A stretch of DNA of 64,000 nt, taken from the NCBI GenBank assembly GCA_021798745.1, contig JAJZBW010000001.1, forward strand, positions 1,188 through 65,187, given 5' to 3'. This stretch comes from Actinomycetes bacterium. Its GTDB lineage: Bacteria; Actinomycetota; Acidimicrobiia; Acidimicrobiales; Bog-793. Below, piece after piece: positions 13,325 to 45,987 of the stretch. Position 1 is the first letter of the stretch; each line of letters begins with the position of its first letter. The translations under genes were made by a program, and so were the position numbers. The notes beneath the pieces were generated by a model, which was not told the origin of the DNA, searched no databases, and saw only the letters and a list, made by a program, of their open reading frames with translations.

Positions 13325-14320
13325 GTGATGGCGCGGTCGGAGTGGCTTCGGACGTTCGTCGCGGTGTACCGCGCCGGGTCCGTGACCGCCGGCGCGCGCC
13401 AGCGCGGCCTCTCCCAGCCGGCCGCGAGCCAGCAGCTCGCGGCGCTGCAGCAGCGAGCGGGAGGCCCGTTGTTCACGCGAACTCCCGCCGGGGTCGAGGC
13501 GACCTCACGCGGGCGCGAGCTCTACGGACGGGTCGCGGACGCCCTCGACCGCCTCGAGGGCGTGCTCGCGGCGCTCGACGGCGGCAGCATCCTCGAGCCG
13601 GCCGTCGTCCGCGTCGGGGCCTCCGCAGAGTACGCGGCGCTCCGGCTCGTTCCCGCGCTCGCCGGCACCGCGGCAACCGTCCGGCTGCGGTTCGGGGACG
13701 ACTCGGACCTCCTCGGTCTCCTCGTCTCGGGAGAGCTGGAGGTGGCGTGCCTCTCGCGCGTCCCGGAACGCCGCGACCTCTCCGTCGTCCCGCTCCCGAC
13801 GGAGCCCTTCGTCCTCGTGTCCGCCCCGGAGCTGGCCCCGTCCGCCCGTGTGGCCGCGGACCCGCTCCGGCTCGGCGCGTGGCTCGCCGGGCGCCCGTGG
13901 GTGGCCGTCACGGTCGAGCTCCCGCGCACGCGACGACTCTGGTCGGAGGTGCTCGGCCGACCGTTCGCGGGTGACCTCCGGCTCGTGGCGCCCGACCGAC
14001 GCGTCGTCTCCGCCGCGGTCGCCGCGGGCATGGGGACCAGCCTCCTCCCGCGCTACGCATGCGAGGTGGCGCTCGCGACGGGTGCGGTCGTCCCCCTCGG
14101 GACGGTCGGAGACCGCGTCCCGCCCGAGCCCTGGTTCGCCTCGACGCGCGCGCCTCGGAGCGAGACGGTCGCGACCGTCGTCGACGCGGTGCGTGCCCGT
14201 GCGGGCGCCGCGCCGCGGCCCCGGGCGGGCCCGGGGCACGGGACGGGCGGTGGGGACGCTGCAGACGGGCGGGCGGAGCAGAGGAGCGGAGCGACATGGC
14301 CGACGAGTACTCGCTGGTGA
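13325..14320 (+). CDS. LysR-family transcriptional regulator
   Basis: The N-terminal wHTH reads LRTFVAVYRAGSVTAGARQRGLSQPAASQQLAALQ. It is divergent from the methyltransferase. The 3' end overlaps the cutA start by 25 nt. Confidence 0.85.
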   Translation: MMARSEWLRTFVAVYRAGSVTAGARQRGLSQPAASQQLAALQQRAGGPLFTRTPAGVEATSRGRELYGRVADALDRLEGVLAALDGGSILEPAVVRVGASAEYAALRLVPALAGTAATVRLRFGDDSDLLGLLVSGELEVACLSRVPERRDLSVVPLPTEPFVLVSAPELAPSARVAADPLRLGAWLAGRPWVAVTVELPRTRRLWSEVLGRPFAGDLRLVAPDRRVVSAAVAAGMGTSLLPRYACEVALATGAVVPLGTVGDRVPPEPWFASTRAPRSETVATVVDAVRARAGAAPRPRAGPGHGTGGGDAADGRAEQRSGATWPTSTRW

Positions 14321-14610
14321 CCATCGCGGCGCCGGACGGGGAGTCCGCCCGGCGCATGGCGGACGATCTCCTCGCGGGCAGGCTCGCGGCGTCCGTCCAA
14401 CTGCTCCCGATCGAGAGCCACTACGTGTGGAAGGGCGAGGTCGTCCACCGGGAGGAGGTGCTCCTCCTCGTGACCACGCGGACGGCGCTCTACCCGGCCC
14501 TCGAGACCGCCGTCGCCGGGTCCCACGAGTACGAGGTCCCCGAGATCGTGCGCATCCCCGTCGCGGCGGGGCTCCCCGCGTACCTGGACTGGATATCGGC
14601 GGTCACCTGA
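14296..14610 (+). CDS. cutA: Divalent-cation tolerance protein CutA
   Basis: It begins MADEYSLVTIAAPDGESARRMADDLLAGRLAASVQLLPIESHYVWKGEV, which is typical of CutA1. A GAGGAG RBS lies upstream. Confidence 0.85.
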   Translation: MADEYSLVTIAAPDGESARRMADDLLAGRLAASVQLLPIESHYVWKGEVVHREEVLLLVTTRTALYPALETAVAGSHEYEVPEIVRIPVAAGLPAYLDWISAVT

Positions 14611-15307
14611 GGGGCGCCTGTGCCTGCGACTGGCCGAGCGGGCGGTCGTCCCGTGCGATCCGGTAGCCGACGTTCGCGACGGTCTCTACGACGGTCGGCT
14701 CCCCGAGCTTGCGCCTGAGGCGGCTGATCGTCACGAGGACCGCGTTCGTGAAGGGGTCGGCGTGCTCGTCCCAGACCTGCTCGAGCAGGTCCTCCGCGCT
14801 GAGCACCGACTCGCCCGCGTGGAGGAGCGCCTCGAGGACGGCGAACTCCTTGGCGGACAGCTCGACGACCCGGCCCGCGCGAGTGACGCGGTGGGCGACC
14901 GTGTCGAACTCGACGTCCGAGGAGCGGAGCACGCACGGGCGCACGCCGGGCTGCCGTCGCGCGAGCGCCCGGACGCGAAGGACGAGCTCGGGGAAGTGGA
15001 AGGGCTTCGCGAGGTAGTCGTCGGCCCCCGCACCGAGCCCGCTGACCCGGTCCTCGGGGGACCCCGAGGCGGTGAGCATGAGCACCATCGCGCGTCCCTC
15101 GGAACCGGTGATCGCCCGGCACAAGACGTCACCGTGGGTCCCCGGCAGGTCGCGGTCGAGCACGACGACGTCGTAGGAGCTGATCGCGAGCTTGCGTGCC
15201 GCCTCGTCACCGTCGCGCGCGACGTCGACGGCCATGGCCTGGTCCCGCAGGCCCTCCGCGACGACCTCGGCGAGCCGGGTCGAGTCCTCCACGACGAGCA
15301 CCCTCAC
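14603..15307 (-). CDS. Response regulator, OmpR/PhoB family
   Basis: It begins VRVLVVEDSTRLAEVV. A REC domain and a winged-helix output (LSAKEFAVLEALL...VANVGYRI) are present. The GTG start overlaps the kinase stop (GTGA). Confidence 0.9.
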   Translation of the reverse strand: MRVLVVEDSTRLAEVVAEGLRDQAMAVDVARDGDEAARKLAISSYDVVVLDRDLPGTHGDVLCRAITGSEGRAMVLMLTASGSPEDRVSGLGAGADDYLAKPFHFPELVLRVRALARRQPGVRPCVLRSSDVEFDTVAHRVTRAGRVVELSAKEFAVLEALLHAGESVLSAEDLLEQVWDEHADPFTNAVLVTISRLRRKLGEPTVVETVANVGYRIARDDRPLGQSQAQAPLR

Positions 15308-16629
15308 GGCCGCGCCGCCCCTCCGGTGCCCTCCGGGAGAGCGCGCGCGGGGCGCGCCGCGAGCGGGAGGTCGACCTCGACTCGCAGCCCGCCCTCCGCG
15401 ATCGCCGTGAGAGCGAGCGACCCGCCGTGCGCGTCGGCGACGGCCGCGACGATCGAGAGCCCGAGCCCGAACCCCCCGTCCGACCCCGTGCGCTCCGTCC
15501 CCGCCCTCCGGAACGGCTGGACGAGGTCGACGACGCCGTTCCCGTCGAGCACCTGGCCGGAGTTCTCGACCACGAGCACGGCGGTGGAGCCGCGGGTGCC
15601 CGTGCGCACGCGCACGAATCCGCCGGGCTCGTTGTGCCGAACCGCGTTGTCGAGGAGGTTCTCGACCAGCTGGGTGAGAAGCGTCGCGTTGCCCGAGACC
15701 CAGGCGTCCGCGCAACCGGGCGCGTCCACGGCGAGCCCGAGCCTCGTGACCGGGCGCTCACGACGCGCGATCGCGGACGCCACGAGCTGGTCGAGCGCGA
15801 GGGGGGTGTCGAGGCCGGCGGGCCCCCTCTCGGCCCGTGCGAGCACGAGGAGCCCCTCGAGCAGGCGGTCGACCCCGTCGAGCTCGACGCGGAACCGCTC
15901 GGCGAGGGTCGCGAGAGGAGGGGGGACCGGTCCGGGCTTCGCGACCGCGACGTCGAGAGCCGCCCGCATCGTCGCAAGCGGGGTGCGGAGCTCGTGGGAG
16001 GCGTTCGCGACGAAGAGGCGCTGGGCCTGGAACGACCTCTCGAGCCGTTCGAGCAGCCCGTCGAAGGTGTCGCCGAGCTGCTTCAGCTCGTCGTCGGGAC
16101 CGGCGAGCGCGAGGCGCTCGTGGAGGTTGCTCGCGGAGATGTCGCGCACGCTGTTCGTGATCGCGCGCAGTGGTCGCAGCACCCGCCCCGCCGAGACCCA
16201 CCCGAGCGCGGCTGCGAGGACGACCGTCAGCGCGAGCGCGATCCCCGAGTAGAGGAGCAGCTGGTGGAGGTCCGAGCTCTGTTGGCCTGCGGCAACGATC
16301 CGGAGCTGCTCGGTGACCTTCCGGAGGACCTCGACGGGCGGGACACGCGGCAGTCCTGCCCGAGCCGGCCCGCCGAGCGCCGGGCTGACGCCTCCCGGCG
16401 GCACGAGCCCGAGCGCGACCGCCCCGGCCGCGGTGATGTCGATGATCCGCGCCGGCACCCTTGCGGAGACGGCGACACGCGTGCTCGTCGCACGCCCCCA
16501 CAGCAGGGCCGTCAGGACGACCAGGGCGGCTACCGACCCGAGGAACAGCGCCCCGTAGGAGGTCGCGAGCCGAGCGCGGACCGTCCGTCGGGAGCCTTCG
16601 CGCCCGTGTGCCGCTCCCTTGCGTCCCAT
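15304..16629 (-). CDS. Sensor histidine kinase (HAMP-HisKA-HATPase_c)
   Basis: The H-box is FVANASHELRTPLATM. The N, G1 and G2 regions are present (LLDNAVRHN, GFGLGLSIV). It has two TM segments and HAMP. Confidence 0.9.
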   Translation of the reverse strand: MGRKGAAHGREGSRRTVRARLATSYGALFLGSVAALVVLTALLWGRATSTRVAVSARVPARIIDITAAGAVALGLVPPGGVSPALGGPARAGLPRVPPVEVLRKVTEQLRIVAAGQQSSDLHQLLLYSGIALALTVVLAAALGWVSAGRVLRPLRAITNSVRDISASNLHERLALAGPDDELKQLGDTFDGLLERLERSFQAQRLFVANASHELRTPLATMRAALDVAVAKPGPVPPPLATLAERFRVELDGVDRLLEGLLVLARAERGPAGLDTPLALDQLVASAIARRERPVTRLGLAVDAPGCADAWVSGNATLLTQLVENLLDNAVRHNEPGGFVRVRTGTRGSTAVLVVENSGQVLDGNGVVDLVQPFRRAGTERTGSDGGFGLGLSIVAAVADAHGGSLALTAIAEGGLRVEVDLPLAARPARALPEGTGGAARP

Positions 16630-16808
16630 GGGTCACCTCGTGTGGCTCGTGCCCGCCGGCGTGCCAGGAGCCGGGACCCCCTGTCGCTCTCCGGTCGCGG
16701 CCGCGAGCGGACGCCCGAGCGCTCGGCCTTCCGGGCGTCGCCGCGCGAGCCTCGCCCGGCCGTGCGTCGCGCGCGCCGTCGCTCCGCCAACGGCGAACCA
16801 TAGGCGCG

Positions 16809-16838
16809 CGCCCGTTCTCGTGACGCCCGTTCCCGTGA
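16809..16838. promoter_or_regulatory. Tandem 15-nt direct repeat CGCCCGTTC(T/C)CGTGA x2, about 180-210 nt upstream of the OmpR-type HK/RR operon
   Basis: Read directly from the sequence; the two units differ at one position. OmpR-family regulators bind direct repeats, so function here is inferred only. Confidence 0.3.
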
Positions 16839-16981
16839 GGCCCATCTCCTCCGGAGCCGCGGGTGCGCGAGGTCCGGGTGGGCGCGGGGGCCGGATGCGC
16901 CTCGGGCGCGCGATCCGCGTCCCCTCGCGGCGTTGCACCCGGGAGCCGACGTGTCGCCCTCCTCGTCTCGCGCCCCCGCGC

Positions 16982-18190
16982 TCAGATCGACCACAGGGCT
17001 TCCGTCGGCGAGAGGCGCGCGGCCCGGAGCGCCGGGAGGAGCCCCGCGACCGCGCCGATCACGAGCGCCGCTCCGAGCCCTCCGCCCCAGGCGAGAGGCG
17101 GGACGACGATCGTCCATCTCTTCGTCGAGGCGTACACGGCCGTCGAGACCGTGCCGAGGACCACCCCCGTCGCGCCGCCGAGGAGGGAGAGCAGGACCGC
17201 CTCCGCGAGGAACTGGGTCCGGATGTGGCTCTTCGTCGCGCCGAGCGCGCGCCGCAGCCCGATCTCCGAGCGCCGTTCGAGCACGGAGATCACCATGATG
17301 TTCGCGACACCGACGGCCCCGACGAGCAGAGCGACGCCTCCGAGCCCGAGGAACAGCCCGTTGAGAGCGGCCTGCGCGTCGGCTTCCGCGACGAGGGCGG
17401 ACGAGGGCTGGGACACGTTGACCTGGTTCGGAGCTTCCGGGTTCGCGGTCGCCCCGAGGACCGCGTCGACCGCGTCGACCTCGCTCGTCGCGGCGCGGAC
17501 GTAGATCTCGGACGGGTGCCCGTCGAACCCGAGGTAGGTCTCCGCGGCGGGGAACCCGACGAGCACGGAGCTGTCGATCTCCGGGGTGAGGGGCGCGGGG
17601 TTCAGGATCCCCGTTACGTAGAACCACATGTTCCCGAGCCAGATCCTCTCTCCCGGGAAGACCCGGTCTATTCCGAGCCGCTGCGCCGCGGCAGCGCCGA
17701 GGACCGCGACGGGCTCGGTCGCCGTCGCGGGGTTCAGGTAGCGCCCGGAGGCGAGGGACGTCCCGACGTCCGACGGGAGGGCGAGGCTCGAGGCGGCCAC
17801 GCTGAGGGCGTTCGTGTCGATGCTCGGCACGAGCGGGCTCCTGTAGACGTTCACGTTGCCCACCGCACCCGTGTACTGGACCTCGGTCACGGGCCCGATC
17901 CGGCCGATCATCCCGGGCGCGGCGACCGGGAGTTCCGCGGGCTGACCGAACAGGCTCTCGCCGTTCGTGACCGTGAGGAGGTTCGTCCCGAGCCGGTTGA
18001 TCTCGGCGAGAAGGCCCGCCTCCGACGAGGAGGAGAGACCGAGGACGGCGACGATCGCCGCGACCCCGATCGCGATCCCGAGAGCGGAGAGCCCGGCCCG
18101 GAGCTTGCGGGTCCGGAGCCCGACGACCGCGACCCTCCAGAGGTCGCCCGGAGCGAGGGCGCCCGCGGAGGGCGACGCCTTCCCCGTCAC
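16982..18190 (-). CDS. ABC transporter permease, FtsX/MacB type
   Basis: It has an N-terminal TM, a large extracytoplasmic domain and a C-terminal FtsX region (ERRSEIGLRRALGATKSHI). A GTGA overlap joins it to the ATPase. Confidence 0.9.
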   Translation of the reverse strand: MTGKASPSAGALAPGDLWRVAVVGLRTRKLRAGLSALGIAIGVAAIVAVLGLSSSSEAGLLAEINRLGTNLLTVTNGESLFGQPAELPVAAPGMIGRIGPVTEVQYTGAVGNVNVYRSPLVPSIDTNALSVAASSLALPSDVGTSLASGRYLNPATATEPVAVLGAAAAQRLGIDRVFPGERIWLGNMWFYVTGILNPAPLTPEIDSSVLVGFPAAETYLGFDGHPSEIYVRAATSEVDAVDAVLGATANPEAPNQVNVSQPSSALVAEADAQAALNGLFLGLGGVALLVGAVGVANIMVISVLERRSEIGLRRALGATKSHIRTQFLAEAVLLSLLGGATGVVLGTVSTAVYASTKRWTIVVPPLAWGGGLGAALVIGAVAGLLPALRAARLSPTEALWSI

Positions 18191-18978
18191 CCGGTCACCG
18201 CGTCCCCGCGGTCCCCGTCCGCTCCCCGGGGCGGGGCGGGCGCCCCGCGGACAGGACCTGCCGCGCCGGCGGGCGGACCTCCGGCCGAGGACCTGTCCTC
18301 GACGACCCTGCCGTCCAGGACCTGCACCTGGCGCGGCAGCCGGTCGGCGATGGCCCGCTCGTGGGTGATCACGACGATCGTCGCCCCGCCGTCGTGGAGC
18401 TCCTCGAGGAGCGAGAGGATCGCCTGGCTGTTCGCGCTGTCGAGGTTCCCGGTCGGCTCGTCGGCGAGCACGATCGCGGGCCTCCCGACGAGGGCGCGGG
18501 CGATGGCGACGCGCTGCCGCTCCCCGCCCGACAGCTGGGTCGGCCGCGCGGAGCCACGGTGGCCGAGCCCGACGCGCGTGAGCGCCGCGGCCGCGGCGTC
18601 CCGACGCTCCGCGAGCGCGACGCCCGCGTAGAGGAGCCCGTCGGCGACGTTGTCGAGGGCTCGCTCGTGCTCCGCGAGGAAGAACTGCTGGAACACGAAC
18701 CCGATCCGGGTCGCCCGGAGCGCCGAGAGCTCACGGTCCGACATGTCTGCGACGTCGAGCCCCGTCACGCGCACGGAGCCGGTCGTCGGCCTGTCGAGCG
18801 TCCCCATGAGGTGGAGGAGCGTCGTCTTCCCCGATCCCGACGGGCCCACTATCGCGACGAGCTCGCCCTCGCCGACGACGAAGCTCACGCCCCGGAGCGC
18901 CTCGACGGGCGGCTCGCTCGGATAGGTCTTGGTCACGGACTGGACCTCGAGGACGGGCGTCGCCACGGTCGCGCTCAC
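18187..18978 (-). CDS. ABC transporter ATP-binding protein (MacB/LolD-like)
   Basis: Walker A is GPSGSGKTT, the signature is LSGGERQRVAIARAL and Walker B is VLADEPT. A GTGA overlap joins it to the adaptor stop. Confidence 0.92.
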   Translation of the reverse strand: MSATVATPVLEVQSVTKTYPSEPPVEALRGVSFVVGEGELVAIVGPSGSGKTTLLHLMGTLDRPTTGSVRVTGLDVADMSDRELSALRATRIGFVFQQFFLAEHERALDNVADGLLYAGVALAERRDAAAAALTRVGLGHRGSARPTQLSGGERQRVAIARALVGRPAIVLADEPTGNLDSANSQAILSLLEELHDGGATIVVITHERAIADRLPRQVQVLDGRVVEDRSSAGGPPAGAAGPVRGAPAPPRGADGDRGDAVTG

Positions 18979-20966
18979 GTGCCTGGCGTCACGACGCGGT
19001 CCCCCGCGGCGATCCCCGAGCCGGAGACCTGCACGAGCCCGTCCGCGTCGTCGAACAGCCCGAGAGAGACCGCGGCGAGATGATGCACACCATGTGATAT
19101 GAGCTCGAGAGCGTACCCTCCGTCGGCGAGCGCGAGGAGCGCGTCGACGGGGACCACCAGGACGTCCGAGACCGTCGCGGTCGTGATCGAGACGTTCACG
19201 GGCGCCTGGTCGAGGCCCGCGGTCGCGCGCAGGTGCGTCGGGGCGACGAGCACCGTGATCGTCGGCGAGGAGCTCCCGCCCCCCGCGGAGCTGCTCGGCA
19301 CCGTCGCGACCGTCCCGACCGAGGTCACGGTCCCGGGCGTCGTCGAGTTGTCCGGGAGCGTGATCGTCACGGGGTCGCCGACCTTCACGTCGGACTGGAG
19401 GGACGCGTCGAGCCCGATCGTCACGACGAGCGACGTCGACGTCGCCGTCAGGATCGCGAGGCCGGGGGTGGCAGCGACCCCGTCGGCGGCCGACACGGAG
19501 GCGACGGCGATCGGCCCCGGCTCGACGACCACGTCTCCGAGCGCGACGATCCCGGTCGGCGGCGCGCCGGTGGACCGCTGCCACGCCTCGACCGCCGCCT
19601 TCGTCGAGGGGCCGAAGTGGCCGTTCGGGACCAGTCCCCGTCCGAACCCGAGAGCGACGAGGTTCCTCTGGAGCTGCGCGACGTCGGCGCCGTCTCCGAC
19701 TCCCTCGGAGAGAGCGCGGTACGGGGTGACGGACCCGTAGAGGAGCGGAACCTCTCGGCCGTCGAGCCCGTACACGGCGCCGCCGCGGCGGACGACCTGG
19801 CCGGCGGTCGGCAGGGCGGTCACGCGCGCCCCGGGGTTCACCGCCTGCTCGGCGTCCGCCGCGAACGTGCTCTGCGCCACGCGGAGGGCGCTCTCGTCCC
19901 CTGCGAGGGTCTGCGCGTCCTGCGCGACCGCCGCCCCCGACCCCGCACGGTCCGCGGCGACCGAGTCGCTCGCGACCGCCAGCGCCTCGGTGTCCGCTGC
20001 GACGACGACCGCCTCCGCCGTGCACGACGACGTCGGGATCTGGAACGTCTGGATCGCACCCGTCGCGGTCCCTCCCGCGTTCGTCGCGACGAGGGTGAAG
20101 TCGTACGTCGTTCCCGGGACGAGACCGGTCACGGTCGCGCCGACGGGCACCGATGTCGCGCCCGATCCCGCGCTCTCGACGGTCGTGCTGCCTCCGTACG
20201 CCGCGCTCACGCCGTACTCGAACCTGTAGCTTGTGTCCGACCCGTTCGGATCGACGCTGCCCGAGAGGGAGACGCTCTCCGACGCGCTCACCGCCGCGGA
20301 CCCCGTCGTGACCGTCGGACGCAGCGGGGTCGGCACGGTGCTCGCCCCCGGGACGACCCTCCGTACGTGCGCCGCGGCGCCCGCGGCGCCGGATCCCGCG
20401 TTCCCGGCGCCTGCCCCGGTCCCGGTCCCGGTCCCCGTCCCCGTCCCCGTCCCCGTCCCCGTGGCCGTCGTGACCGTCGCGGCGGAGGAGGACGGGCAGC
20501 CGAGCCGCTCGTCCGTCGCGAGCTGCGTGTTGGCCTGCGAGAGAGCCGTCGTGTCGGCGCTCTCGGCCGCGAGCGCTCCGAGAATCGTCGCGGCGTCCTG
20601 GGCTCGTCCTGTCGCCCGCGCGCGCCCGAGGGCGGCCGTGTCGGCAGCGACCTTCGCGCGGTCGGCCTGGAGCGCCGTCCGGTCCGCGGCCATCGTGGCG
20701 GCGGAGGTGCCCGTCGGGAGCGACACCGAGTAGCTCCCCTCGTATCCGAGGGTCGCGCTCACCTCCGTCTCGGAGGAGAGGTTCTGTCGCGTGACGGTCG
20801 CCGTCGACGTCGGGTACGCGTTGTCGAGGGCGCTCCCCGGTGCTCCCGTCGAGGCGAACGGGTCGGTCGCGGCGAGCGCGGCCCCCGCTGCGGCGACGAC
20901 GGCCACGCCCGCCGCGGCGAGGCGTCGACGGCGCGTGCCGAGCAGGCGCGCCGCGTGCGGGCTCAC
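18975..20966 (-). CDS. Membrane-anchored periplasmic-adaptor-like protein (HlyD/MacA-like) with a peptidoglycan-binding domain and an inserted FN3-like domain
   Basis: It starts VSPHAARLLGTRRRRLAAAGVAVVAAAG (TM anchor). Ala-rich coiled-coil arms flank a (TG)n linker and an FN3-like segment (VDPNGSDTSYRFEYGVSAAYGG...GTTYDF). The PG_binding_1 motif is GADVAQLQRNLVALGF...GPSTKAAVEAWQ. A C-terminal beta-barrel region follows. Confidence 0.8.
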   Translation of the reverse strand: MSPHAARLLGTRRRRLAAAGVAVVAAAGAALAATDPFASTGAPGSALDNAYPTSTATVTRQNLSSETEVSATLGYEGSYSVSLPTGTSAATMAADRTALQADRAKVAADTAALGRARATGRAQDAATILGALAAESADTTALSQANTQLATDERLGCPSSSAATVTTATGTGTGTGTGTGTGTGAGAGNAGSGAAGAAAHVRRVVPGASTVPTPLRPTVTTGSAAVSASESVSLSGSVDPNGSDTSYRFEYGVSAAYGGSTTVESAGSGATSVPVGATVTGLVPGTTYDFTLVATNAGGTATGAIQTFQIPTSSCTAEAVVVAADTEALAVASDSVAADRAGSGAAVAQDAQTLAGDESALRVAQSTFAADAEQAVNPGARVTALPTAGQVVRRGGAVYGLDGREVPLLYGSVTPYRALSEGVGDGADVAQLQRNLVALGFGRGLVPNGHFGPSTKAAVEAWQRSTGAPPTGIVALGDVVVEPGPIAVASVSAADGVAATPGLAILTATSTSLVVTIGLDASLQSDVKVGDPVTITLPDNSTTPGTVTSVGTVATVPSSSAGGGSSSPTITVLVAPTHLRATAGLDQAPVNVSITTATVSDVLVVPVDALLALADGGYALELISHGVHHLAAVSLGLFDDADGLVQVSGSGIAAGDRVVTPGT
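20412..20464. repeat. Hexanucleotide tandem repeats (CCGGTC/CCCGTC units) encoding TGTGTGTGTGTGTGAGAG within the adaptor gene
   Basis: Read directly from the sequence. About 8 in-frame 6-nt units are present. Confidence 0.8.
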
Positions 20967-21610
20967 CCCCCGCCCTCGGCCTGCTTCGAGTAGGGGAGAC
21001 CCGCGGGGATGAGCGCCTCGCAGATCTGGCGCGCCCGGAGGAACGACGTCGAGCTCGGGCTCATCCCCGTCGGGATCGGGAAGCTCACCTGGCCGCCGTT
21101 GAAGACCGGGTCGGGGAAGCCGACGATCCCGTGGGACCGCATGCACGCCGCCGCCTTCAAGTAGTCCGCCTGCTGCGCCGGCGTGATGGTCGCGGCGTGC
21201 GCGCCGCCGCCCGCAGGGAGGTACTTGCGGCACTCGCCCTGCGCGGACACGAAGGACTTCGAGCCGGGGTCGACGCCGCTGCCCGGAGCGATCTTGATCC
21301 CGACGCCCTTCCCGTTGCTCGAGATCGTGGGCTGCGGGAAGCCGGGCACCCCGTGCGAGCGCATGCAGGCGGCGAACCTGAGCACGTCTGAGTAGACGGC
21401 GCCCGGGCTCCCCGCGGGCGCGGGAGCCCCGCTCGGTGCGGGAGCGGTCGTCGAGGTCGTCGTGGAGCCGAGGCTCGCGACGCCGGCGGACGGGCTGCCC
21501 CCGCACGCGGCCGCGAAGGCGACGACGCCCGTCAGGGCCGCCCCGACCGCGAGACGCCGCGCCGCGCTCCGGGGAGGCCGCTCCTTTCCTGCATGCTCAG
21601 TGACCGTCAC
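20963..21610 (-). CDS. Secreted lipoprotein with duplicated C-x-RSHG-x-x-FP-x-P module (copy 2; paralog of 1965..2567)
   Basis: It has a lipobox (LTGVVAFAAAC) and repeats ACMRSHGVPGFPQP and ACMRSHGIVGFPDP, each followed by a second Cys. The GTG start at 21610 is tentative. The stop overlaps the adaptor start (GTGA). Confidence 0.75.
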   Translation of the reverse strand: MTVTEHAGKERPPRSAARRLAVGAALTGVVAFAAACGGSPSAGVASLGSTTTSTTAPAPSGAPAPAGSPGAVYSDVLRFAACMRSHGVPGFPQPTISSNGKGVGIKIAPGSGVDPGSKSFVSAQGECRKYLPAGGGAHAATITPAQQADYLKAAACMRSHGIVGFPDPVFNGGQVSFPIPTGMSPSSTSFLRARQICEALIPAGLPYSKQAEGGG

Positions 21611-21941
21611 CGTCGTACCGTCCCCACCATCCGACCGCGGCCGGAGAGCTCGCACTGGTCGCCAACTAGATACGGAGTATCCTACTCGAGCGCCGCCTCC
21701 CGCGCCGACGCCGTCCCTTCGCGTGACAGAAGTACCCGGACGGGGGTAACAGGGGCCTAACAGGCGCGCCCGGGTGGACCGCGCCGGAGGTGCGTGCACG
21801 GGGCCGTCCGGCCGCCAGCGGCCGGGCCACCCGCCCGTGACGCCGCGCACCGCGACCGGGTCCCTACACTTCACGGCGTCTGGGGCGCCGGGCCCCGGAT
21901 CCGCCCGGGGAGGCGGGCGCGCTCGGGAGGTCGTCGGGAGA

Positions 21942-23063
21942 ATGGGACAGCGCGGCCGGCTCCCGATGCCCGAGCGCCGCCGGCCTCCGGTCGCCGTGCT
22001 CGCCCGGCGCTGGGCGGTGCTCGTCGCAGTCGTCGTCGTGGTGGTCGTCGGAGTCCGGGTCGCGACCGGCGGCCGTGCGCCGGCGCGCGCCACGACCCGT
22101 GCGGCGGGGGCCGGCACGTCCGCCCCGCGTCCGCGCCCTGCGGCCGGGCACCTCGTGGTCTCTCTCGCACCGTGGCGGCTCGGCGCACCGGTGTCCCGTT
22201 CGGCGGTCGTCCCGTACGGGTCGGACTTCCTCGTCCTCGGCGGGCTCGCGACGGGCGACACCTCGACGGCCGACGTGTGGAAGGTGGACCCGGCGCGCGG
22301 GACCGCGACGCTCGTCGGGTCGCTCCCCTCCGCCGTGCACGACGCGGCCGGTGGGTTCCTCTCCGGGCGCGCCGTCGTGTTCGGGGGGGGATCCTTCTCG
22401 ACGGTCGCGGCGGTGCAGGCGTGGTCGCCGAGCTCGGGGACCGCCTCGGTCCCGGGCGCGCTCCCGGCGCCACGCTCGGACCTGTCGGCCGCGGTGCTCG
22501 GCGGGACGGCGTACGTGCTCGGCGGGTACGACGGGACGTCGCTCTCCCCGACGATCCTCGCGACCTCCGACGGGGTCCACTTCCGCACCGTGGGTCGTCT
22601 CGTGCAGCCCGTCCGATACGCCGCGGTCGCCGCGGTCGGCGGATCGGTGCTCGTCGTGGGAGGGGACCTCGGGGCCGGCACGGCGAGCGCCGCGAGCAGG
22701 CAGACCAGCGAGATCCAGCGCTTCGACCCGCGCACGGGCAGGACCACCGTCGTCGGCCACCTGCCCGTCGTCCTCGGGGACGCCTTCGCGGTCGCGCTCG
22801 GGGGCGAGCTGTACGTGCTCGGCGGGCGGACCGGGAACGTGCTGTCCCGTGCGATGTGGCGCGTCGACCCGGCGACCGGAGCGGTGTCTCCCGCGGGGAC
22901 GCTCACGTACCCGAGGAGCGACGCGGGGGTCGTCGTCGTCGCAGGTCGCGCCTACGTCGTCGGCGGCGAGACGACCGGGCCCCTCGCCCCGCTCGACTCG
23001 GTGCTCGAGGTCCGGCTCGCGACCGGACGGCCGCGGACCGCGACGCGTGGGACCGCCGCCTGA
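21942..23063 (+). CDS. Membrane-anchored Kelch-repeat protein
   Basis: The start MGQRGRLPMPERRR is followed by a TM (WAVLVAVVVVVVVG). Repeated Kelch-like blades follow (LVLGG, AVVFGGG, AYVLGGYDG, VLVVGG, LYVLGGR, AYVVGG). Confidence 0.8.
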   Translation: MGQRGRLPMPERRRPPVAVLARRWAVLVAVVVVVVVGVRVATGGRAPARATTRAAGAGTSAPRPRPAAGHLVVSLAPWRLGAPVSRSAVVPYGSDFLVLGGLATGDTSTADVWKVDPARGTATLVGSLPSAVHDAAGGFLSGRAVVFGGGSFSTVAAVQAWSPSSGTASVPGALPAPRSDLSAAVLGGTAYVLGGYDGTSLSPTILATSDGVHFRTVGRLVQPVRYAAVAAVGGSVLVVGGDLGAGTASAASRQTSEIQRFDPRTGRTTVVGHLPVVLGDAFAVALGGELYVLGGRTGNVLSRAMWRVDPATGAVSPAGTLTYPRSDAGVVVVAGRAYVVGGETTGPLAPLDSVLEVRLATGRPRTATRGTAA

Positions 23064-23946: not shown

Positions 23947-25798
<1,852 letters not shown>

Positions 25799-25807
<9 letters not shown>

Positions 25808-25819
25808 ACCAGTCCCGAG
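25799..25819. promoter_or_regulatory. Candidate DosR-box-like site TTCGGCTAGACCAGTCCCGAG, upstream of the USP gene
   Basis: The right half, AGTCCCGA, matches the published DosR consensus TTSGGGACTWWAGTCCCSAA well. The left half matches only in TTCGG and carries one extra nt. The site lies 74-94 nt upstream of the USP start. Confidence 0.3.
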
Positions 25820-25892
25820 GGGCGAACAGGTCCGAAAGGCCCTACTGCCCTCCTCGGGGCGATGCGAACATCACGCGCGGAGGTGGTCCGCC

Positions 25893-26354
25893 GTGGACGT
25901 GGCAGCGAGACAGCGAGAGGGCAAGGGGCGCGCCGCGGGACCGGTCGTCGTCGGGGTCGACGGTTCGAAGGCGTCCGACGCGGCGCTCGAGTGGGCGGCG
26001 GAGGAGGCGCGCATGCGCGGTGCGACCCTCCGGGTCGTGCACTCGTGGTCGCTCCCGACCTGGAGCTACTCCGCGTACCTCCCTCCCGTCGCGTTCGAGG
26101 AGGTGGAGCCCGCGGCCCGAGAGGACCTCGACCGCCAGGTCGCCCAGGTGCTCGGTCCGAGCCCGGACGTGCGCGTCGAGAAGGAGCTCCGCGAAGGACC
26201 GGCCGCCGAGCAGATCCTCGACGCGGCGGCGGACGCGGCACTCGTCGTCGTCGGCTCCCGTGGGCGCGGGGGATTCGCGGGCCTCCTGCTCGGATCGGTC
26301 AGCGCCCAGGTCGTGCAGCACGCGCACTGTCCCGTGACGATCGTCCGGACCTGA
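25893..26354 (+). CDS. Universal stress protein (UspA family)
   Basis: The motifs VVVGVDGSKASDAALEWAAEEA and the ATP-binding region VVGSRGRGGFAGLLLGSVSAQVVQHAHCPV are present. Confidence 0.9.
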   Translation: MDVAARQREGKGRAAGPVVVGVDGSKASDAALEWAAEEARMRGATLRVVHSWSLPTWSYSAYLPPVAFEEVEPAAREDLDRQVAQVLGPSPDVRVEKELREGPAAEQILDAAADAALVVVGSRGRGGFAGLLLGSVSAQVVQHAHCPVTIVRT

Positions 26355-29043: not shown

Positions 29044-31581
29044 GTGGCGATGGCCGACGGGGACGTCGCGGAGGCGGGCTTCCCGGCGGTGTCGTTCGCG
29101 ACCGACGACGTCGACGCGACGCTGCTCGCCGAGGACATAGCGCGCGCGCGTGAGGCCGCGGTCCAGGCCGGCTTCGACTTCGTCGACCTCGAGCTGTTCG
29201 AGCTCGACCCGACCTCCGCGGACGTGCTGCCGGAGGACCGGGCGCGACGCGACCGTGCGGTCGCGGTCGGGTGGCGGTACGGCCTTCCCGTCGTGGCGGT
29301 CGCGAGCCCGGAGAACCTGTTCCTCCTCGACGACATCTACCTCGCCGCGGGACGTGACGTCCACATCGTCGTCGCGAGCGGCATCCAGATCGACCGGTGG
29401 ATCGAGCGTGTCTACGGGGGCTCGGCGCGCCGGTCCTCGTCGCCCGTCGCGTCCCCGCGTCGAGCCGCTCCCGCCGCGGGCCCCTCCGAGCTCGTCCCGA
29501 CGGGTTCGGACTCGATCGACGAGTGGACCGCCGCGGGGGCGGCCGCGCTCGTCGGGGACCTCACGACCTCCGACGCGGAGGAGCCCGCCCCGGATGACGG
29601 CGTCTCTGCCGGGGCGACGGGCCCGGAGACGGTCGAGGAGGACCTCTCCGACGCGGGCTCCCCCGGCGCGGGCGCTCCGGGCGCCGAGCTCCTCGACGGT
29701 GGCGTGCTCGCGGCGACCCCGCTCGACGCCGCCCCGCTCGACGTGACGCTCTCGATCGGCCTCCCCGTGCGAGGTGAGGGCGACACGGGCACCCCGCTCG
29801 GCCTCCTCGCGGCCTTCCCGGAGGGAGACCTCCCGGCCGCGCTGCTCGAGGAGCCCGAGGACCTCGTCGGGCCCGTCGACCTGAGCGGCCCGAAGCTCGC
29901 GCTCGGCGAGGTCCTCCTCGAGTCCGGGTCCATCAGCCCGGCGGACCTCGAGACCGCCGAGCGGCACCAGCAGTCCTCTGGCCGGGCGCTCCGGGAGATC
30001 ATCGCCGAGCTCGGCGTCGTGAACGAGGTGGACCTCCAGCGCGCCATCGCGAGAGTGGAGGGCGTCGAGTTCCTGGACCTCAACAGCTGGGCGATCGACC
30101 CGTCCGCGGCGAGCCTCCTCCCCGAGTCCCTCGCTCGCCGCTACCGGATCCTCGCGATCGGGTTCCGCGGCGATCGGCCGGTCATCGCGATGGTGAACCC
30201 GACGGACGTGTTCGCGCTGGACGACGTCCGGACGATGCTCGGGCGCGACGTCGTCACGGTCATCTGCACGGCGCGTCAGGTCGAGGAGTACCTGTCGCGC
30301 ACCTACCGGCACAGCGACGAGGCGAACGTCGCGGCTCGCAACGCGGCGCTCTCGGCCGCAGCGTCGGAGGCGACGCAGCTCGGGGAGCTCACGGACCTCC
30401 ACGCGGTCGTCGAGGACGCCCCGATCGTCAAGTTCGTGAACCTCATCTTGCGCCAGGCGCTGAACGAGCGCGCGTCGGACGTGCACATCGAGCCGACCTC
30501 GGACGACCTGCAGGTCCGCTTCCGGATCGACGGCGTCCTCCACGAGGTGACGAGCGCGCCGAAGGCGATCCAGGGCGGGGTCACCTCGCGCCTCAAGATC
30601 ATGGCGGACCTCGACATCGCGGAGCACCGTGTCCCCCAGGACGGGCGCCTCTCGCTCAACGCCGGTGGCCGCGAGATCGACCTTCGCGTCGCGACCCTCC
30701 CGACCGTGCACGGCGAGAAGGTCGTGCTGCGGGTCCTCGACAAGTCGACCGCCCCACTCGACCTCGCGCGCCTCGGCTTCCTCCCCGAGGTGCTCTCGCG
30801 CTACGAGGAGTGCTATCGCAAGCCATCGGGGACCATCCTCGTGACGGGCCCGACCGGGTCGGGCAAGTCCACGACCCTGTACGCGACCCTCAACAAGCTG
30901 AACAGCTCGGAGCGGAACCTCATCACGGTCGAGGACCCCGTCGAGTACCAGCTCCGCGGCGTGAACCAGGTCCAGGTGAACCCTCGCGCCGGGCTGAGCT
31001 TCGCGAGCGCGCTCCGGTCGATCCTGCGCTCGGACCCCGACGTCGTGCTCGTCGGGGAGATCCGGGACCGGGAGACGGCGACGATCGCCGTGGAGGCCGC
31101 CCTCACCGGCCACCTCGTGCTCTCGACGCTGCACACGAACGACGCCGCGAGCACCCCGCTCCGTCTCGTCGAGATGGGCGTCGAGCCGTTCCTCGTGTGC
31201 TCCGCTCTCGACTGCGTCCTCGCGCAGCGACTCGCTCGCCTCCTCTGCGACGTCTGCTCCGATCCCTACGAGCCGACCTCCCAGGAGCTCGTCGCCGCCC
31301 GCTGGGTGGAGGCGGACACCCCCGAGTCGGGCGATGTCCAGTTCCGCCGTGCCGTCGGATGCCAGGCCTGCAGCGGGACCGGGTACCGAGGCCGTCTCGC
31401 GATCCAGGAGGTGCTCCCTGTGACCGAGGAGGTCGAGCGGGCGATCCTCGCGCGGGCCTCGACCGAGGACATCAAGCGCCTTGCGATCTTCGAGGGGATG
31501 ACGACGATGCACCGGGACGGCCTGAGGAAGGCCGCCATGGGGCTCACGAGCCTGGAAGAGATCCTGAGGGTGGTCGTATGA
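29044..31581 (+). CDS. pilB: Type IV pilus assembly (extension) ATPase PilB/GspE family, long form (845 aa)
   Basis: Two T2SSE_N-like N-terminal domains are separated by an acidic, Pro-rich linker. Walker A is GPTGSGKSTT. The tetracysteine motif is CDVC...CQAC. Confidence 0.92.
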   Translation: MAMADGDVAEAGFPAVSFATDDVDATLLAEDIARAREAAVQAGFDFVDLELFELDPTSADVLPEDRARRDRAVAVGWRYGLPVVAVASPENLFLLDDIYLAAGRDVHIVVASGIQIDRWIERVYGGSARRSSSPVASPRRAAPAAGPSELVPTGSDSIDEWTAAGAAALVGDLTTSDAEEPAPDDGVSAGATGPETVEEDLSDAGSPGAGAPGAELLDGGVLAATPLDAAPLDVTLSIGLPVRGEGDTGTPLGLLAAFPEGDLPAALLEEPEDLVGPVDLSGPKLALGEVLLESGSISPADLETAERHQQSSGRALREIIAELGVVNEVDLQRAIARVEGVEFLDLNSWAIDPSAASLLPESLARRYRILAIGFRGDRPVIAMVNPTDVFALDDVRTMLGRDVVTVICTARQVEEYLSRTYRHSDEANVAARNAALSAAASEATQLGELTDLHAVVEDAPIVKFVNLILRQALNERASDVHIEPTSDDLQVRFRIDGVLHEVTSAPKAIQGGVTSRLKIMADLDIAEHRVPQDGRLSLNAGGREIDLRVATLPTVHGEKVVLRVLDKSTAPLDLARLGFLPEVLSRYEECYRKPSGTILVTGPTGSGKSTTLYATLNKLNSSERNLITVEDPVEYQLRGVNQVQVNPRAGLSFASALRSILRSDPDVVLVGEIRDRETATIAVEAALTGHLVLSTLHTNDAASTPLRLVEMGVEPFLVCSALDCVLAQRLARLLCDVCSDPYEPTSQELVAARWVEADTPESGDVQFRRAVGCQACSGTGYRGRLAIQEVLPVTEEVERAILARASTEDIKRLAIFEGMTTMHRDGLRKAAMGLTSLEEILRVVV

Positions 31582-31609
31582 ACCGGAGGGCTTCGGAGAA
31601 GGTGGCTGC

Positions 31610-33394
31610 ATGAGCATTGCAACGACACCGGTGTCGGAGTGGTCGCGGCGCCTCGCGGAGGCGCTCGTGTCGAACGGCCAGCTCGACGCGGAGGCGGCGC
31701 GTGCCGCGCTCGCGCGCTCGGCCTCGAGTGGGACACCCGTCGCCGTGCTGCTCTCTCGCGAGGGCCTCGTCGAGAGCTCCGAGTCGCTCGAGTGCCTCGC
31801 CGCGATCTCCGGGCTTCGCGCGGTGGACCTCGACAGGGACCCCCCGACGCTCGCCGCCGCCGCCGCCGTCCCGCTCGGCGTCGCCCGCTACCACCGGGCG
31901 ATCGGCCAACGGCTCGAGGACGGGTACCTCGTGCTCGCGTGCTCCGAGCCTCTCGCGGCGGACCACCTCCAGTCGATCGCATCGGCCATCGACTGCGGGA
32001 TCGCGGGGTGCGTCCTCGGCGACCCCATCGTGATCGACAGGCTCATCGCACACGCAGGCGCGCCGCCGAGCACGCGTGCCGCCGACGAGGAGGACACCGT
32101 GAAGCTGCTCACGCGCGCGTCGACCCGCGACGCCCCGTCACCGGCTCGTGCCGGATCGTTCGCCTCGGGGTCCGCCGACGACCTCTTCGGGAGCGGGTAC
32201 GTGCTCGCGGACCGTGAGGAGCCGTCCACCCGGGTCGTGCTCGACCTCGGCCCCGCGTCGCCCGAGCGGGCGCTGCCCGACGGGACCTCCCCGACGGACC
32301 GTCGCCCCGGACCGTTCGGACGCCCGTTCGCGAGCGACGTGAACGACCTCTTGACCTTCGCTGTCGAGCACGGCGCGTCCGACCTGCACCTCGCTGCCCG
32401 GTTCGCGCCCGCCGTGCGCATCGACGGTTCGATCCGCCCCATCGAGGACCTCGAGCCGATGGAGCCGCTCGCGCTCCGGGACATGATCTTCCAGATCCTT
32501 CCCCAGTCGGTCCGGGAGCGGTACGAGGCGACGAAGGAGCTCGACACCTCCTACGAGATCCCCGACCTCGGGAGGTTCCGGCTCAGCGTGTTCCAGCAGC
32601 GCGGAGCCGTCGGGGCGGTGTTCCGGACGATCCCCCCGACGATCCCGACGCTCGAGTCGCTCGGCCTGCCGAGAGCGCTCGCGTCCTTCGCGGAGCTCCG
32701 CCGAGGTCTTGTGCTCCTCACGGGCCCGACGGGGTCGGGCAAGTCCACGACCCTCGCCGCCGTCGTCGACCGCATCAACGCGACGAAGCCCCTCCACATC
32801 ATGACCGTCGAGGACCCGATCGAGTACCACCACGAGCACAAGCGCTCGATCGTGAACCAGAGGGAGATCGGCCAGGACACCTCGTCGTTCGCCGAGTGCC
32901 TCCGTCACGTCCTTCGCCAGGACCCCGACGTGATCCTCGTCGGCGAGATGCGCGACCTCGAGACCATCTCGACCGCCCTCACGGCGGCCGAGACGGGCCA
33001 CCTCGTGTTCGCGACTCTCCACACCCAGGACGCGCCGCAGACGATCGACCGGGTGATCGACGCGTTCCCGACGAACCAGCAGGACCAGGTGCGCGTGCAG
33101 CTCGCAGGCGCGCTCGAGGCTGTCGTGACCCAGCAGCTCGTCATCGCCGAGGGGGGCGTCGGGCGCGTGCCGGTCGCCGAGGTGATGGTGTGCACGCCCG
33201 CGATCCGGAACCTCATCCGGTCGGCGAAGACCCACCAGATCTACTCCCTCATGCAGACCGGCGGGTCGAGCGGGATGCAGACGATGGACCAGGCGCTCGC
33301 CGACGCGGTGCGGGACCGCAAGATCAGCGAGAACGTCGCGTTCGACCGGGCGCACGACCCGAAGCAGCTCCTCGACTACCTGAAGGGCTCGTGA
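31610..33394 (+). CDS. pilT: PilT-type retraction ATPase with an about 240-aa N-terminal extension containing a T2SSE_N-like domain
   Basis: The C-terminal 350 aa form a canonical PilT: GPTGSGKSTT, DPDVILVGEMRD and the signature PAIRNLIRS. The N-terminus resembles GspE/PilB N-domains (LAEALVSNGQLDAEAARAAL...VLACSEPL). Confidence 0.88.
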   Translation: MSIATTPVSEWSRRLAEALVSNGQLDAEAARAALARSASSGTPVAVLLSREGLVESSESLECLAAISGLRAVDLDRDPPTLAAAAAVPLGVARYHRAIGQRLEDGYLVLACSEPLAADHLQSIASAIDCGIAGCVLGDPIVIDRLIAHAGAPPSTRAADEEDTVKLLTRASTRDAPSPARAGSFASGSADDLFGSGYVLADREEPSTRVVLDLGPASPERALPDGTSPTDRRPGPFGRPFASDVNDLLTFAVEHGASDLHLAARFAPAVRIDGSIRPIEDLEPMEPLALRDMIFQILPQSVRERYEATKELDTSYEIPDLGRFRLSVFQQRGAVGAVFRTIPPTIPTLESLGLPRALASFAELRRGLVLLTGPTGSGKSTTLAAVVDRINATKPLHIMTVEDPIEYHHEHKRSIVNQREIGQDTSSFAECLRHVLRQDPDVILVGEMRDLETISTALTAAETGHLVFATLHTQDAPQTIDRVIDAFPTNQQDQVRVQLAGALEAVVTQQLVIAEGGVGRVPVAEVMVCTPAIRNLIRSAKTHQIYSLMQTGGSSGMQTMDQALADAVRDRKISENVAFDRAHDPKQLLDYLKGS

Positions 33395-33401
33395 GCGCGC
33401 C

Positions 33402-34634: not shown

Positions 34635-34685
34635 GGAGATGGGTCCGGTGCACCGTTGCGAAGGGCGTGAGAAGGGGCGGGCGAC

Positions 34686-45981: not shown

Positions 45982-45987
45982 CCCCTC

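Follow-up and report, generated by a model that had tools for sequence, protein, structure and literature searches.

A 64-kb stretch of DNA from an Acidimicrobiales genome (contig JAJZBW010000001.1; the whole of it is referred to as the window) was found to carry a cluster of genes for a lipoprotein, a membrane-fusion adaptor, an ATP-binding cassette (ABC) ATPase and a MacB/FtsX-type permease, followed by a sensor histidine kinase and an OmpR/PhoB-type response regulator that make up a two-component system (TCS). The gene content and conservation of this cluster, and its possible role as a regulated, wall-anchored pump, are described here.

Organization of the gene cluster

The G+C content of the window is approximately 73 %, as a result of which long spurious open reading frames (ORFs) occur throughout, and genes were called by codon-position GC, long ORFs being unreliable in such DNA. 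By this measure six minus-strand genes with third-position GC of 0.90–0.98 fill positions 14603–21610 (Table 1). An earlier interpretation made from the DNA alone (the sequence-only reading) had described a seven-gene envelope module here; the envelope module was borne out, but the number of genes was six, because the 352-nt stretch between the permease and kinase genes carries no coding signal. The only ORF in that gap (16633–16938) had flat GC across the three codon positions and was rejected as a seventh gene. ORF 20963–22906, which would extend the lipoprotein gene to 647 aa, was rejected as a high-GC artefact, being antisense to the Kelch-repeat gene and having a low-complexity N-terminal translation. 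The lipoprotein start at 21610 agrees with the public annotation (100 % identity), in which the protein is entered as ‘hypothetical’ from an Actinomycetota metagenome-assembled genome (MAG); its closest relatives come from Acidimicrobiales MAGs.

Table 1. Positions of the genes and features of the cluster and of its immediate flanks in the 64-kb window
Feature	Position	Strand	Basis or remark
Lipoprotein gene, 215 aa	20963-21610	-	Third-position GC 0.92-0.98
Membrane-fusion adaptor gene, 663 aa	18975-20966	-	AlphaFold2 fold, Foldseek, Pfam PG_binding_1
fn3-like beta-sandwich at hairpin tip, aa 218-309 of adaptor	20040-20315	-	Pfam fn3, 21.1 bits vs cut-off 25, E 4e-4
PG_binding_1 domain, aa 426-474 of adaptor	19545-19691	-	Pfam PF01471, 46.2 bits vs cut-off 23, E 5e-12
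ABC ATPase gene, 263 aa	18187-18978	-	Pfam ABC_tran, motifs
MacB/FtsX-type permease gene, 402 aa	16982-18190	-	Pfam FtsX and MacB_PCD
Non-coding spacer between permease and kinase genes, 352 nt	16630-16981	-	No codon-position GC bias
Tandem repeat in spacer, 15 bp x 2.3	16809-16843		Minus-strand reading TCACGGGAACGGGCG TCACGAGAACGGGCG
Tandem repeat in spacer, 29 bp x 2.2	16712-16776		
Sensor histidine kinase gene, 441 aa	15304-16629	-	Pfam HAMP, HisKA, HATPase_c
OmpR/PhoB-type response regulator gene, 234 aa	14603-15307	-	Pfam Response_reg and Trans_reg_C
Putative response-regulator operator, CTGTTAGGCCC-CTGTTAC	21746-21763	-	11-bp-spaced direct repeat, also written CTGTTAGGCCCCTGTTAC
CutA1 gene	14296-14610		Convergent on response regulator gene
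LysR regulator gene	13325-14320		
Kelch-repeat (beta-propeller) protein gene, 429 aa	21774-23063	+	Divergent from lipoprotein gene

GTGA start/stop overlaps at 20963–20966, 18975–18978, 18187–18190 and 15304–15307, the first three of which had been taken to imply strict translational coupling of a four-protein complex, were all confirmed on the minus strand at exactly these coordinates. Strict coupling of the four proteins was not upheld, however, since such overlaps are common in this genome and the lipoprotein–adaptor overlap is not conserved. There were 11 four-base NTGA junctions between coding-like ORFs in the window, of which four lie in this cluster, a frequency that is ordinary for this genome. 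The 4-bp overlap between the adaptor and ATPase genes was kept in 36 of 38 related loci, whereas an NTGA overlap between the ATPase and permease genes was present in nine of 35. Because conservation differs by junction, tight coupling looks like a conserved property of the adaptor and the ATPase, and not of the four genes as a set.

Two tandem repeats were found in the non-coding spacer between the permease and kinase genes. They differ in sequence from the TGTTAC site described below and could serve the kinase and regulator genes as a promoter or operator within the cluster. The spacer had no Rfam match, and a scan of this region (75 % GC) revealed no consensus promoter or terminator.

The ABC transporter core

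Pfam domain calls agreed with the sequence-only reading that a MacB/FtsX-type ABC transporter lies at the centre of the module. The permease matched FtsX (79.7 bits, cut-off 25.5, E 2e-22) and MacB_PCD (63.5 bits, cut-off 27, E 4e-17), and hydropathy placed its four transmembrane (TM) segments at about residues 34–52, 286–304, 327–349 and 366–390. The resulting layout, with TM1, an extracytoplasmic MacB_PCD domain of approximately 230 aa and then TM2–4, is that of a Type VII ABC permease, which has four TM segments, a large extracytoplasmic domain between TM1 and TM2 and a C-terminal FtsX domain. The ATPase matched ABC_tran (111 bits, E 7e-32), and intact Walker A (GPSGSGKT), signature (LSGGERQR), Walker B (LADEPT) and H-loop (ITHE) motifs could be read in its translation.

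None of the cluster proteins reached a curated equivalog in NCBIfam, the models for MacB, LolCDE, FtsEX, VanRS-O and heavy-metal TCSs all being below cut-off. The MacB equivalog NF007826 (cut-off 966 bits) gave 104 bits with the permease and 215 bits with the ATPase, which are encoded by separate genes; judged by sequence, the two are not MacB orthologues. LolD (TIGR02211) was the best NCBIfam match of the ATPase, though at 220 bits against a cut-off of 308. Scores were also below cut-off for LolC/LolE (TIGR02212; 29 bits against 362), DevC (17 against 290), FtsX_actino (29 against 250) and FtsE (207 against 265).

Orthologues of the ATPase in related loci were 65–80 % identical, and those of the permease were 69–80 % identical across three actinobacterial classes. 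Between the window and related loci the outside domain of the permease was 68 % identical, compared with approximately 40–57 % for the lipoprotein and 31 % for the hairpin of the adaptor.

The adaptor

A structure of the 663-aa protein was predicted with AlphaFold2 from 56 homologues (mean predicted local distance difference test score, pLDDT, 85.2). Foldseek searches of the PDB with this model returned the periplasmic adaptor proteins BesA, MexA, ZneB, CusB, AcrA, MacA, EmrA and Spr0693 at probability 1.0 (E down to 2.5e-10), on which basis the predicted fold is that of a genuine membrane-fusion protein. Identity with the HlyD/membrane-fusion protein families was settled by predicted structure only, as no such match was found in Pfam, NCBIfam or the sequences of the PDB; the Pfam matches were restricted to PG_binding_1 and a sub-threshold fn3. 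An adaptor with a peptidoglycan-binding domain, as proposed from the sequence alone, is therefore supported by both the model and Pfam.

The model begins with an N-terminal TM anchor, beta strands and a 66-residue helix, which is followed by a disordered linker, the beta-sandwich at 218–309 and two return helices. Further beta strands, a small helical bundle corresponding to PG_binding_1 and a C-terminal all-beta region (beta-barrel and membrane-proximal parts) complete the protein. The hairpin, lipoyl and beta-barrel domains of MacAB-type adaptors, plus a membrane-proximal domain, could thus all be assigned in the model, with the PG_binding_1 bundle predicted to be inserted between the lipoyl and beta-barrel parts. 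The 218–309 region was modelled as beta strands at pLDDT 78–95 and gave fibronectin type III matches with Foldseek. Hairpin and fn3 region together form the variable part of the adaptor family, being absent from some homologues of approximately 385–400 aa and larger in others of approximately 780 aa. Since each hairpin helix comprises approximately 60–66 residues, or roughly 90–100 Angstrom, with the fn3 cap in addition, a tube built from this predicted structure could reach well into the actinobacterial wall.

The disordered linker at the tip of the hairpin contains (Thr-Gly)8, encoded at 20415–20462 by a near-perfect hexanucleotide array (CCCCGT repeated eight times on the plus strand, ACGGGG on the coding strand). 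Slippage in this 6-nt array would preserve the reading frame and could vary the length of the linker.

The lipoprotein family

The presence of a dedicated lipoprotein in the module, also proposed from the sequence alone, was supported by a hydrophobic segment at residues 20–38 with the lipobox F-A-A-A-C36-G-G and predicted lipidation at the invariant Cys36. The lipobox is followed by a Thr/Pro-rich linker and by two homologous repeats of approximately 70 aa, which are 45 % identical to one another (E 2e-15). In the window protein each repeat carries C-M-R-x-H-G-V-x-x-F-P-D-P and, further on, a second cysteine; the corresponding family motif is C-[ML]-[RQ]-x-[HN]-G-x-x-x-[FMV]-P-D-P plus a second invariant cysteine. 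Among 60 homologues Cys36, C82, C127, C156 and C197 were invariant or nearly so, a pattern that fits one disulfide per repeat. The AlphaFold2 model was mostly helical, with pLDDT of approximately 90 over residues 62–210.

No match to the lipoprotein was found in Pfam-A 2025 (searched with the window protein and 60 relatives), in NCBIfam 20.0, among PDB sequences or, with Foldseek, among PDB folds, and no additional Pfam domain was found in longer members of the family. The family is large, with 9666 members at E<=1e-3 and 5229 at E<=1e-10 recovered when its profile was run against 1.84 billion cluster representatives at 50 % identity.

Conservation of the gene neighbourhood

Related loci were collected around the lipoprotein gene and, separately, around the adaptor gene. 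A scan of one genome per species centred on the lipoprotein yielded 79 loci, examined to ±10 kb where the contig allowed, from Acidimicrobiales, Solirubrobacterales, Streptosporangiaceae and one Microbacteriaceae MAG. One or more lipoprotein genes together with the adaptor, ATPase and permease genes lay on one strand in 37 of the 79, and a kinase/regulator pair was present in 35 of these 37 complete-pump loci. One to four tandem lipoprotein paralogues may precede the adaptor gene.

Centring the search on the adaptor provided a reciprocal and less biased test of co-occurrence. An alignment of 56 adaptor sequences had no stretch conserved enough to search with, and a 12-sequence alignment was used in a scan of metagenomes that gave 80 loci. 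The N-terminus of the adaptor was included in 65 of these, six of which were too short upstream to judge; in all of the 59 evaluable loci a gene of the lipoprotein family lay directly upstream on the same strand. A TCS was present in 26 of 36 evaluable loci, and none was seen in the other 10 within the DNA covered. Streptomyces globisporus (locus L080, JODW01000017), a MAG from the Chloroflexota and one from the Mycobacteriales also had a lipoprotein gene upstream of the adaptor gene plus an adjacent TCS, the upstream proteins of these three distant lineages matching the lipoprotein profile with E values of 1e-21 to 4e-46. The sequence-only reading had named a lack of co-occurrence of the lipoprotein with the ABC and adaptor genes as the result that would count against it; the opposite was clearly found, both in the 59 adaptor-centred loci and in the three distant lineages.

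The position of the TCS was more variable. In most loci it is divergent from and upstream of the lipoprotein gene, in locus L016 it lies upstream on the same strand and in the window it lies downstream on the same strand. The sequence-only reading was thus right that an OmpR-type pair follows the pump genes, but this arrangement is a local rearrangement and not the usual one in relatives. As gene content is conserved while gene order varies, the comparison argues for functional linkage rather than inherited synteny. No biosynthetic genes were conserved in the cluster or in the neighbourhoods examined.

Paralogues of the lipoprotein were also encoded beside other transporters. At 2066–7978 of L084 (the same locus as L004) there are genes for a PadR regulator, an ABC ATPase, an 846-aa FtsX-domain permease, a lipoprotein paralogue and a 450-aa S8-like peptidase, and the same pattern of an ATPase upstream of a lipoprotein paralogue was seen in L002, L006, L020 and L028. 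A further paralogue is preceded by a different ATPase together with a 337-aa protein without a Pfam match, possibly its permease. Members of the lipoprotein family are therefore encoded repeatedly next to ABC exporters, and these exporters differ in architecture.

A group of Solirubrobacterales loci (L043, L044, L048, L053, L056, L059–L063, L065–L069, L074–L076 and L078) contains approximately 0.8–1.5 kb of extra DNA between the ATPase and permease genes, which in L062 (16271–17587) codes for a secreted protein of 438 aa in which weak Ig-like repeats of the Big_1 type were recognized. An additional, more divergent pair of regulator and kinase genes lies between lipoprotein copies in most loci of this group.

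The two-component system and its putative operator

The assignment of the last two genes to an OmpR-type TCS was corroborated by Pfam, with Response_reg and Trans_reg_C in the regulator and HAMP, HisKA and HATPase_c in the kinase all above cut-off. VanRS-O was the best NCBIfam match, below cut-off for both the regulator (230 bits against 505) and the kinase (163 against 720). The heavy-metal kinase/regulator models TIGR01386 (E 9e-46, 157 bits against 293) and TIGR01387 (E 2e-47, 161 against 279) and the MtrA, MtrB and CseB models were below cut-off as well. The kinase consists of TM1, an outside loop of approximately 80 aa, TM2, HAMP, HisKA and HATPase_c. Among orthologues the outside loop was only 24 % identical, compared with 59 % for TM2 and HAMP, a poor conservation that points away from reading of the signal by a conserved, folded domain.

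A putative operator, a direct repeat with 11-bp spacing of the kind bound by OmpR/PhoB regulators, was located upstream of the lipoprotein gene (Table 1). It was the sole match in the window, where 0.02 were expected. In 2.67 Mb of related loci, both strands included, TGTT-N6/7-TGTTAC occurred 34 times, nearly always in intergenic regions between TCS and lipoprotein genes, and every locus with this repeat had a regulator at least 60 % identical to that of the window. The related Acidimicrobiaceae, whose regulators are 65–68 % identical to that of the window, have a version with four half-sites (TAACAG twice and then TGTTAC twice) between the divergent TCS and the lipoprotein gene, and in relatives with an inserted gene the site is repeated directly before the lipoprotein gene. 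At the same position Solirubrobacterales, with regulators 55–60 % identical, have CGGTTTC-N4-CGGTTTC. The type of repeat thus co-varies with the identity of the regulator, which is evidence for, though not proof of, direct control by the linked regulator over the lipoprotein–pump operon. In the window the start of the Kelch-repeat gene is 11 nt from the putative operator, and this gene sits where relatives have the TCS.

Other genes in the window

The genes flanking the cluster (CutA1, LysR and Kelch-repeat) are unrelated to the module. Further away, a type IV pilus-like assembly cluster occupies 29044–36982 on the plus strand, with two PilB-type ATPases possessing MshEN domains, a PilC-type platform protein, PilM and PilO. 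Two regions with further envelope genes (42918–47463 and 54698–56581) include a set of polysaccharide genes, encoding a sugar transferase (Bac_transf), a flippase-like protein (Polysacc_synt) and a protein with a Wzy_C domain, and a gene whose MprF-like product carries the lysyl-phosphatidylglycerol synthase C-terminal domain; lysyl-phosphatidylglycerol synthesis of the MprF type is a known route to resistance to cationic peptides. At 23947–26354 a minus-strand GAF-HisKA_3 histidine kinase gene adjoins a universal stress protein gene, a signalling unit that is separate from the module.

Proposed function and alternative explanations

We would give roughly even chances to the proposal that the module is an inducible, four-subunit, MacAB-like (Type VII ABC) detoxification or export pump, anchored in the wall and controlled by its own TCS, with the lipoprotein as the fourth subunit. 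In such a system the kinase would be activated by an envelope-acting compound or by envelope damage and, as its outside loop is poorly conserved, sensing would probably take place via the membrane or via the lipoprotein, the transporter or another partner. The phosphorylated regulator would bind the TGTTAC repeats and switch on the lipoprotein, adaptor, ATPase and permease genes and, in the window, possibly also the kinase and regulator genes by read-through. ATP hydrolysis would then drive mechanotransmission in the outside domain of the permease, pushing the substrate off the external face of the membrane and into a tube formed by an adaptor hexamer, which would be held to the wall by its peptidoglycan-binding domain and reach with its hairpin of approximately 100 Angstrom into or through the wall zone. 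The lipoprotein, tethered to the membrane, would be the fourth subunit and help to capture the substrate or to assemble the complex, as YknW may do in YknWXYZ. By analogy, the best guess for the substrate is an antimicrobial peptide or a lipid-II-binding antibiotic.

Several points weigh against this proposal. Within the ±10 kb examined, the lipoprotein was accompanied by a TCS without a pump in 11 of the 79 loci and by neither in 17; as the family is found in both situations, it is not exclusively a pump subunit. The lipoprotein–adaptor overlap of the window recurs in only two of 37 related loci, and the operator lies approximately 136 nt upstream of the lipoprotein start codon, compared with approximately 25–70 nt in most relatives. 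The permease and ATPase, at 65–80 % identity across Acidimicrobiia, Thermoleophilia and Actinomycetes, are more tightly conserved than would be expected of a pump for varied xenobiotics, which hints at a conserved endogenous substrate or strong constraint, or at horizontal spread. Finally, the functional steps beyond fold and linkage are drawn from analogy. The high conservation of permease and ATPase and the occurrence of the lipoprotein with a TCS alone are the reasons for which the first two alternatives below were retained.

It is possible, if somewhat unlikely, that the main role of the lipoprotein is in signalling, as a co-sensor or feedback modulator of the kinase comparable to CpxP with CpxA, CseA with CseC or LpqB with MtrB, and that the pump is just one regulated output; this overlaps with the pump proposal and does not exclude it. 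Loci with lipoprotein and TCS but no pump outnumber those with pump and lipoprotein but no TCS by 11 to one, and in most relatives the lipoprotein gene comes first and is divergent from the TCS with the operator between them, as in cpxP-cpxRA. Moreover, the variable outside loop suggests that the kinase relies on a partner, and in Solirubrobacterales the copy most like the window lipoprotein adjoins the first TCS and not the adaptor. Yet a lipoprotein gene preceded the adaptor gene in every evaluable adaptor-centred locus, including loci with no TCS in the DNA covered, paralogues occur beside other ABC exporters with a PadR regulator and no TCS, and in the window the lipoprotein gene overlaps the adaptor gene translationally.

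Export or release of an endogenous envelope component, either by Lol-like extraction of lipoproteins for delivery into the wall or by DevBCA-like export of a lipid, glycolipid or polymer, seems improbable. A housekeeping substrate would fit the very high cross-class conservation of permease and ATPase, the tandem lipoprotein paralogues before the adaptor could be the cargo and LolD was the nearest NCBIfam model for the ATPase, though below cut-off; Type VII ABC systems are also described as often acting on envelope components via dedicated partners (PMC5985334; PMC12646458). Against this, the LolC/E and DevC scores were far below cut-off, the dedicated TCS and operator are suggestive of a response induced by stress, the cluster has no conserved biosynthetic genes and lipoprotein paralogues are found without any pump.

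An FtsEX-like mechanotransducer, in which nothing is transported and ATP switches the wall-binding adaptor and the lipoprotein to control peptidoglycan remodelling, is very doubtful. The FtsX fold of the permease, the PG_binding_1 domain of the adaptor and its long coiled coil, reminiscent of EnvC or PcsB, are consistent with this idea, but the beta-barrel/lipoyl fold of the adaptor is complete, as in adaptors that form channels, no hydrolase domain was found in the adaptor, the lipoprotein or the conserved neighbours examined, and the FtsX and FtsE models were below cut-off. A metal efflux or sensing module, with copper or zinc bound by the C-M-R-x-H motifs of the lipoprotein, a CopRS/CusRS-like TCS and CutA1 as a neighbour, was rejected as highly improbable: the heavy-metal models are among the better NCBIfam matches of the TCS, at scores well below cut-off, the Foldseek matches of the adaptor include CusB and ZneB and the CutA1 gene converges on the regulator gene, but CutA1 lies outside the conserved neighbourhood, the Met and His of the motif are not kept in distant members (CMRENG/CMQKNG in the Streptomyces protein, CLRENG/CLRQNG in the Chloroflexota protein) and only the cysteine pairs are invariant in the wider family, which fits disulfides.

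A bolder suggestion, which we regard as tentative and on balance unlikely, is that the two-repeat, four-cysteine lipoproteins are an unrecognized class of extracytoplasmic partners for Type VII and other ABC exporters of Actinomycetota and Chloroflexota and physically couple the pump to the kinase. If so, pump load or substrate capture would be read as a signal, an arrangement that would parallel Bce-type flux sensing in actinobacteria with unrelated components.

Comparison with known systems

The ABC transporter, the adaptor and the TCS belong to known superfamilies, and monoderm pumps with MacB-type transporters and adaptors are already known. In the literature, nothing was found on the actinobacterial module or its lipoprotein family, only general work on MacB, Ykn, Spr0693, Bce and YbbAP; nor was anything found on a PG_binding_1 insertion with an fn3-capped hairpin, on an apparently obligate lipoprotein partner or on the conserved operator. 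The occurrence of adaptor-containing MacB-type pumps in bacteria without an outer membrane is a recognized puzzle, and to our knowledge only two such systems have been studied. The present module adds features that bear on the role of the adaptor in monoderms, namely an explicit peptidoglycan anchor, a fn3-capped hairpin of variable length and an apparently obligate lipoprotein from a large family (about 9700 clusters at 50 % identity) that has no annotation, curated model or solved structural relative. Homologous modules in Streptomyces make the system genetically testable, the conserved operator offers a ready-made reporter for finding the inducing signal, and the module may have a part in intrinsic resistance or in the self-protection of actinomycetes that produce antibiotics.

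The sequence-only reading had remarked that a MacB-type pump in a monoderm has no outer-membrane partner. The adaptor pump is as it described, but the absence of such a partner is not surprising, being already documented for YknWXYZ of Bacillus and Spr0693-0694-0695 of Streptococcus pneumoniae (PMC5985334, PMC5768738). Like the window module, both have a separate ATPase, a four-TM MacB/FtsX permease and a membrane-anchored adaptor without an outer-membrane duct, and Spr0693 is a structural match of the window adaptor. In these pumps the hexameric adaptor is proposed to pass peptides from the surface of the membrane on to the wall, and without the pump the minimum inhibitory concentration of LL-37 is reduced (PMC5985334, PMC5768738). 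A fourth, accessory protein is encoded first in the operon of YknWXYZ, and YknX binds peptidoglycan (PMC5985334), whilst the Spr0693 hexamer, with a helical barrel 56 Angstrom high, has been proposed to carry substrate to the wall layer (PMC5768738). The window adaptor differs from those of both systems in its PG_binding_1 domain between the lipoyl and barrel domains and in the fn3 domain at the tip of its hairpin, which, at approximately 66 residues per helix, is much longer than the barrel of Spr0693. Its fourth component is a two-repeat lipoprotein and not a polytopic membrane protein of the YknW type, and, unlike in either system, a cognate TCS is genetically linked.

Such linkage of an FtsX-family ABC transporter to an OmpR-type TCS, apparently co-inherited, is known from BceAB-BceRS of Firmicutes, which also has a direct-repeat operator before the transporter operon (PMC5985334). 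The kinase of such modules has little conserved outside sensing domain (PMC5985334), and the window kinase, with its poorly conserved loop, may be comparable. The permease of the window has four TM segments and 402 aa, however, whereas BceB has ten TM segments with an outside domain between TM7 and TM8; the module includes an adaptor and a lipoprotein, and its kinase has HAMP and the outside loop of approximately 80 aa.

The same transporter fold is shared by MacAB-TolC, LolCDE-LolA, FtsEX-EnvC and YbbAP-TesA, in which the extracytoplasmic partner defines the function (PMC5985334; PMC12646458). For the window lipoprotein no sequence or fold relationship was detected to LolA, EnvC, TesA or the TolC-binding lipoprotein YbjP. 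In MtrAB-LpqB, CseABC and cpxP-cpxRA a lipoprotein or periplasmic protein is encoded beside a TCS, often as the first regulated gene. The window lipoprotein resembles these in its genetic setting but differs in having no sequence similarity to LpqB, CseA or CpxP and in being tied to an ABC pump.

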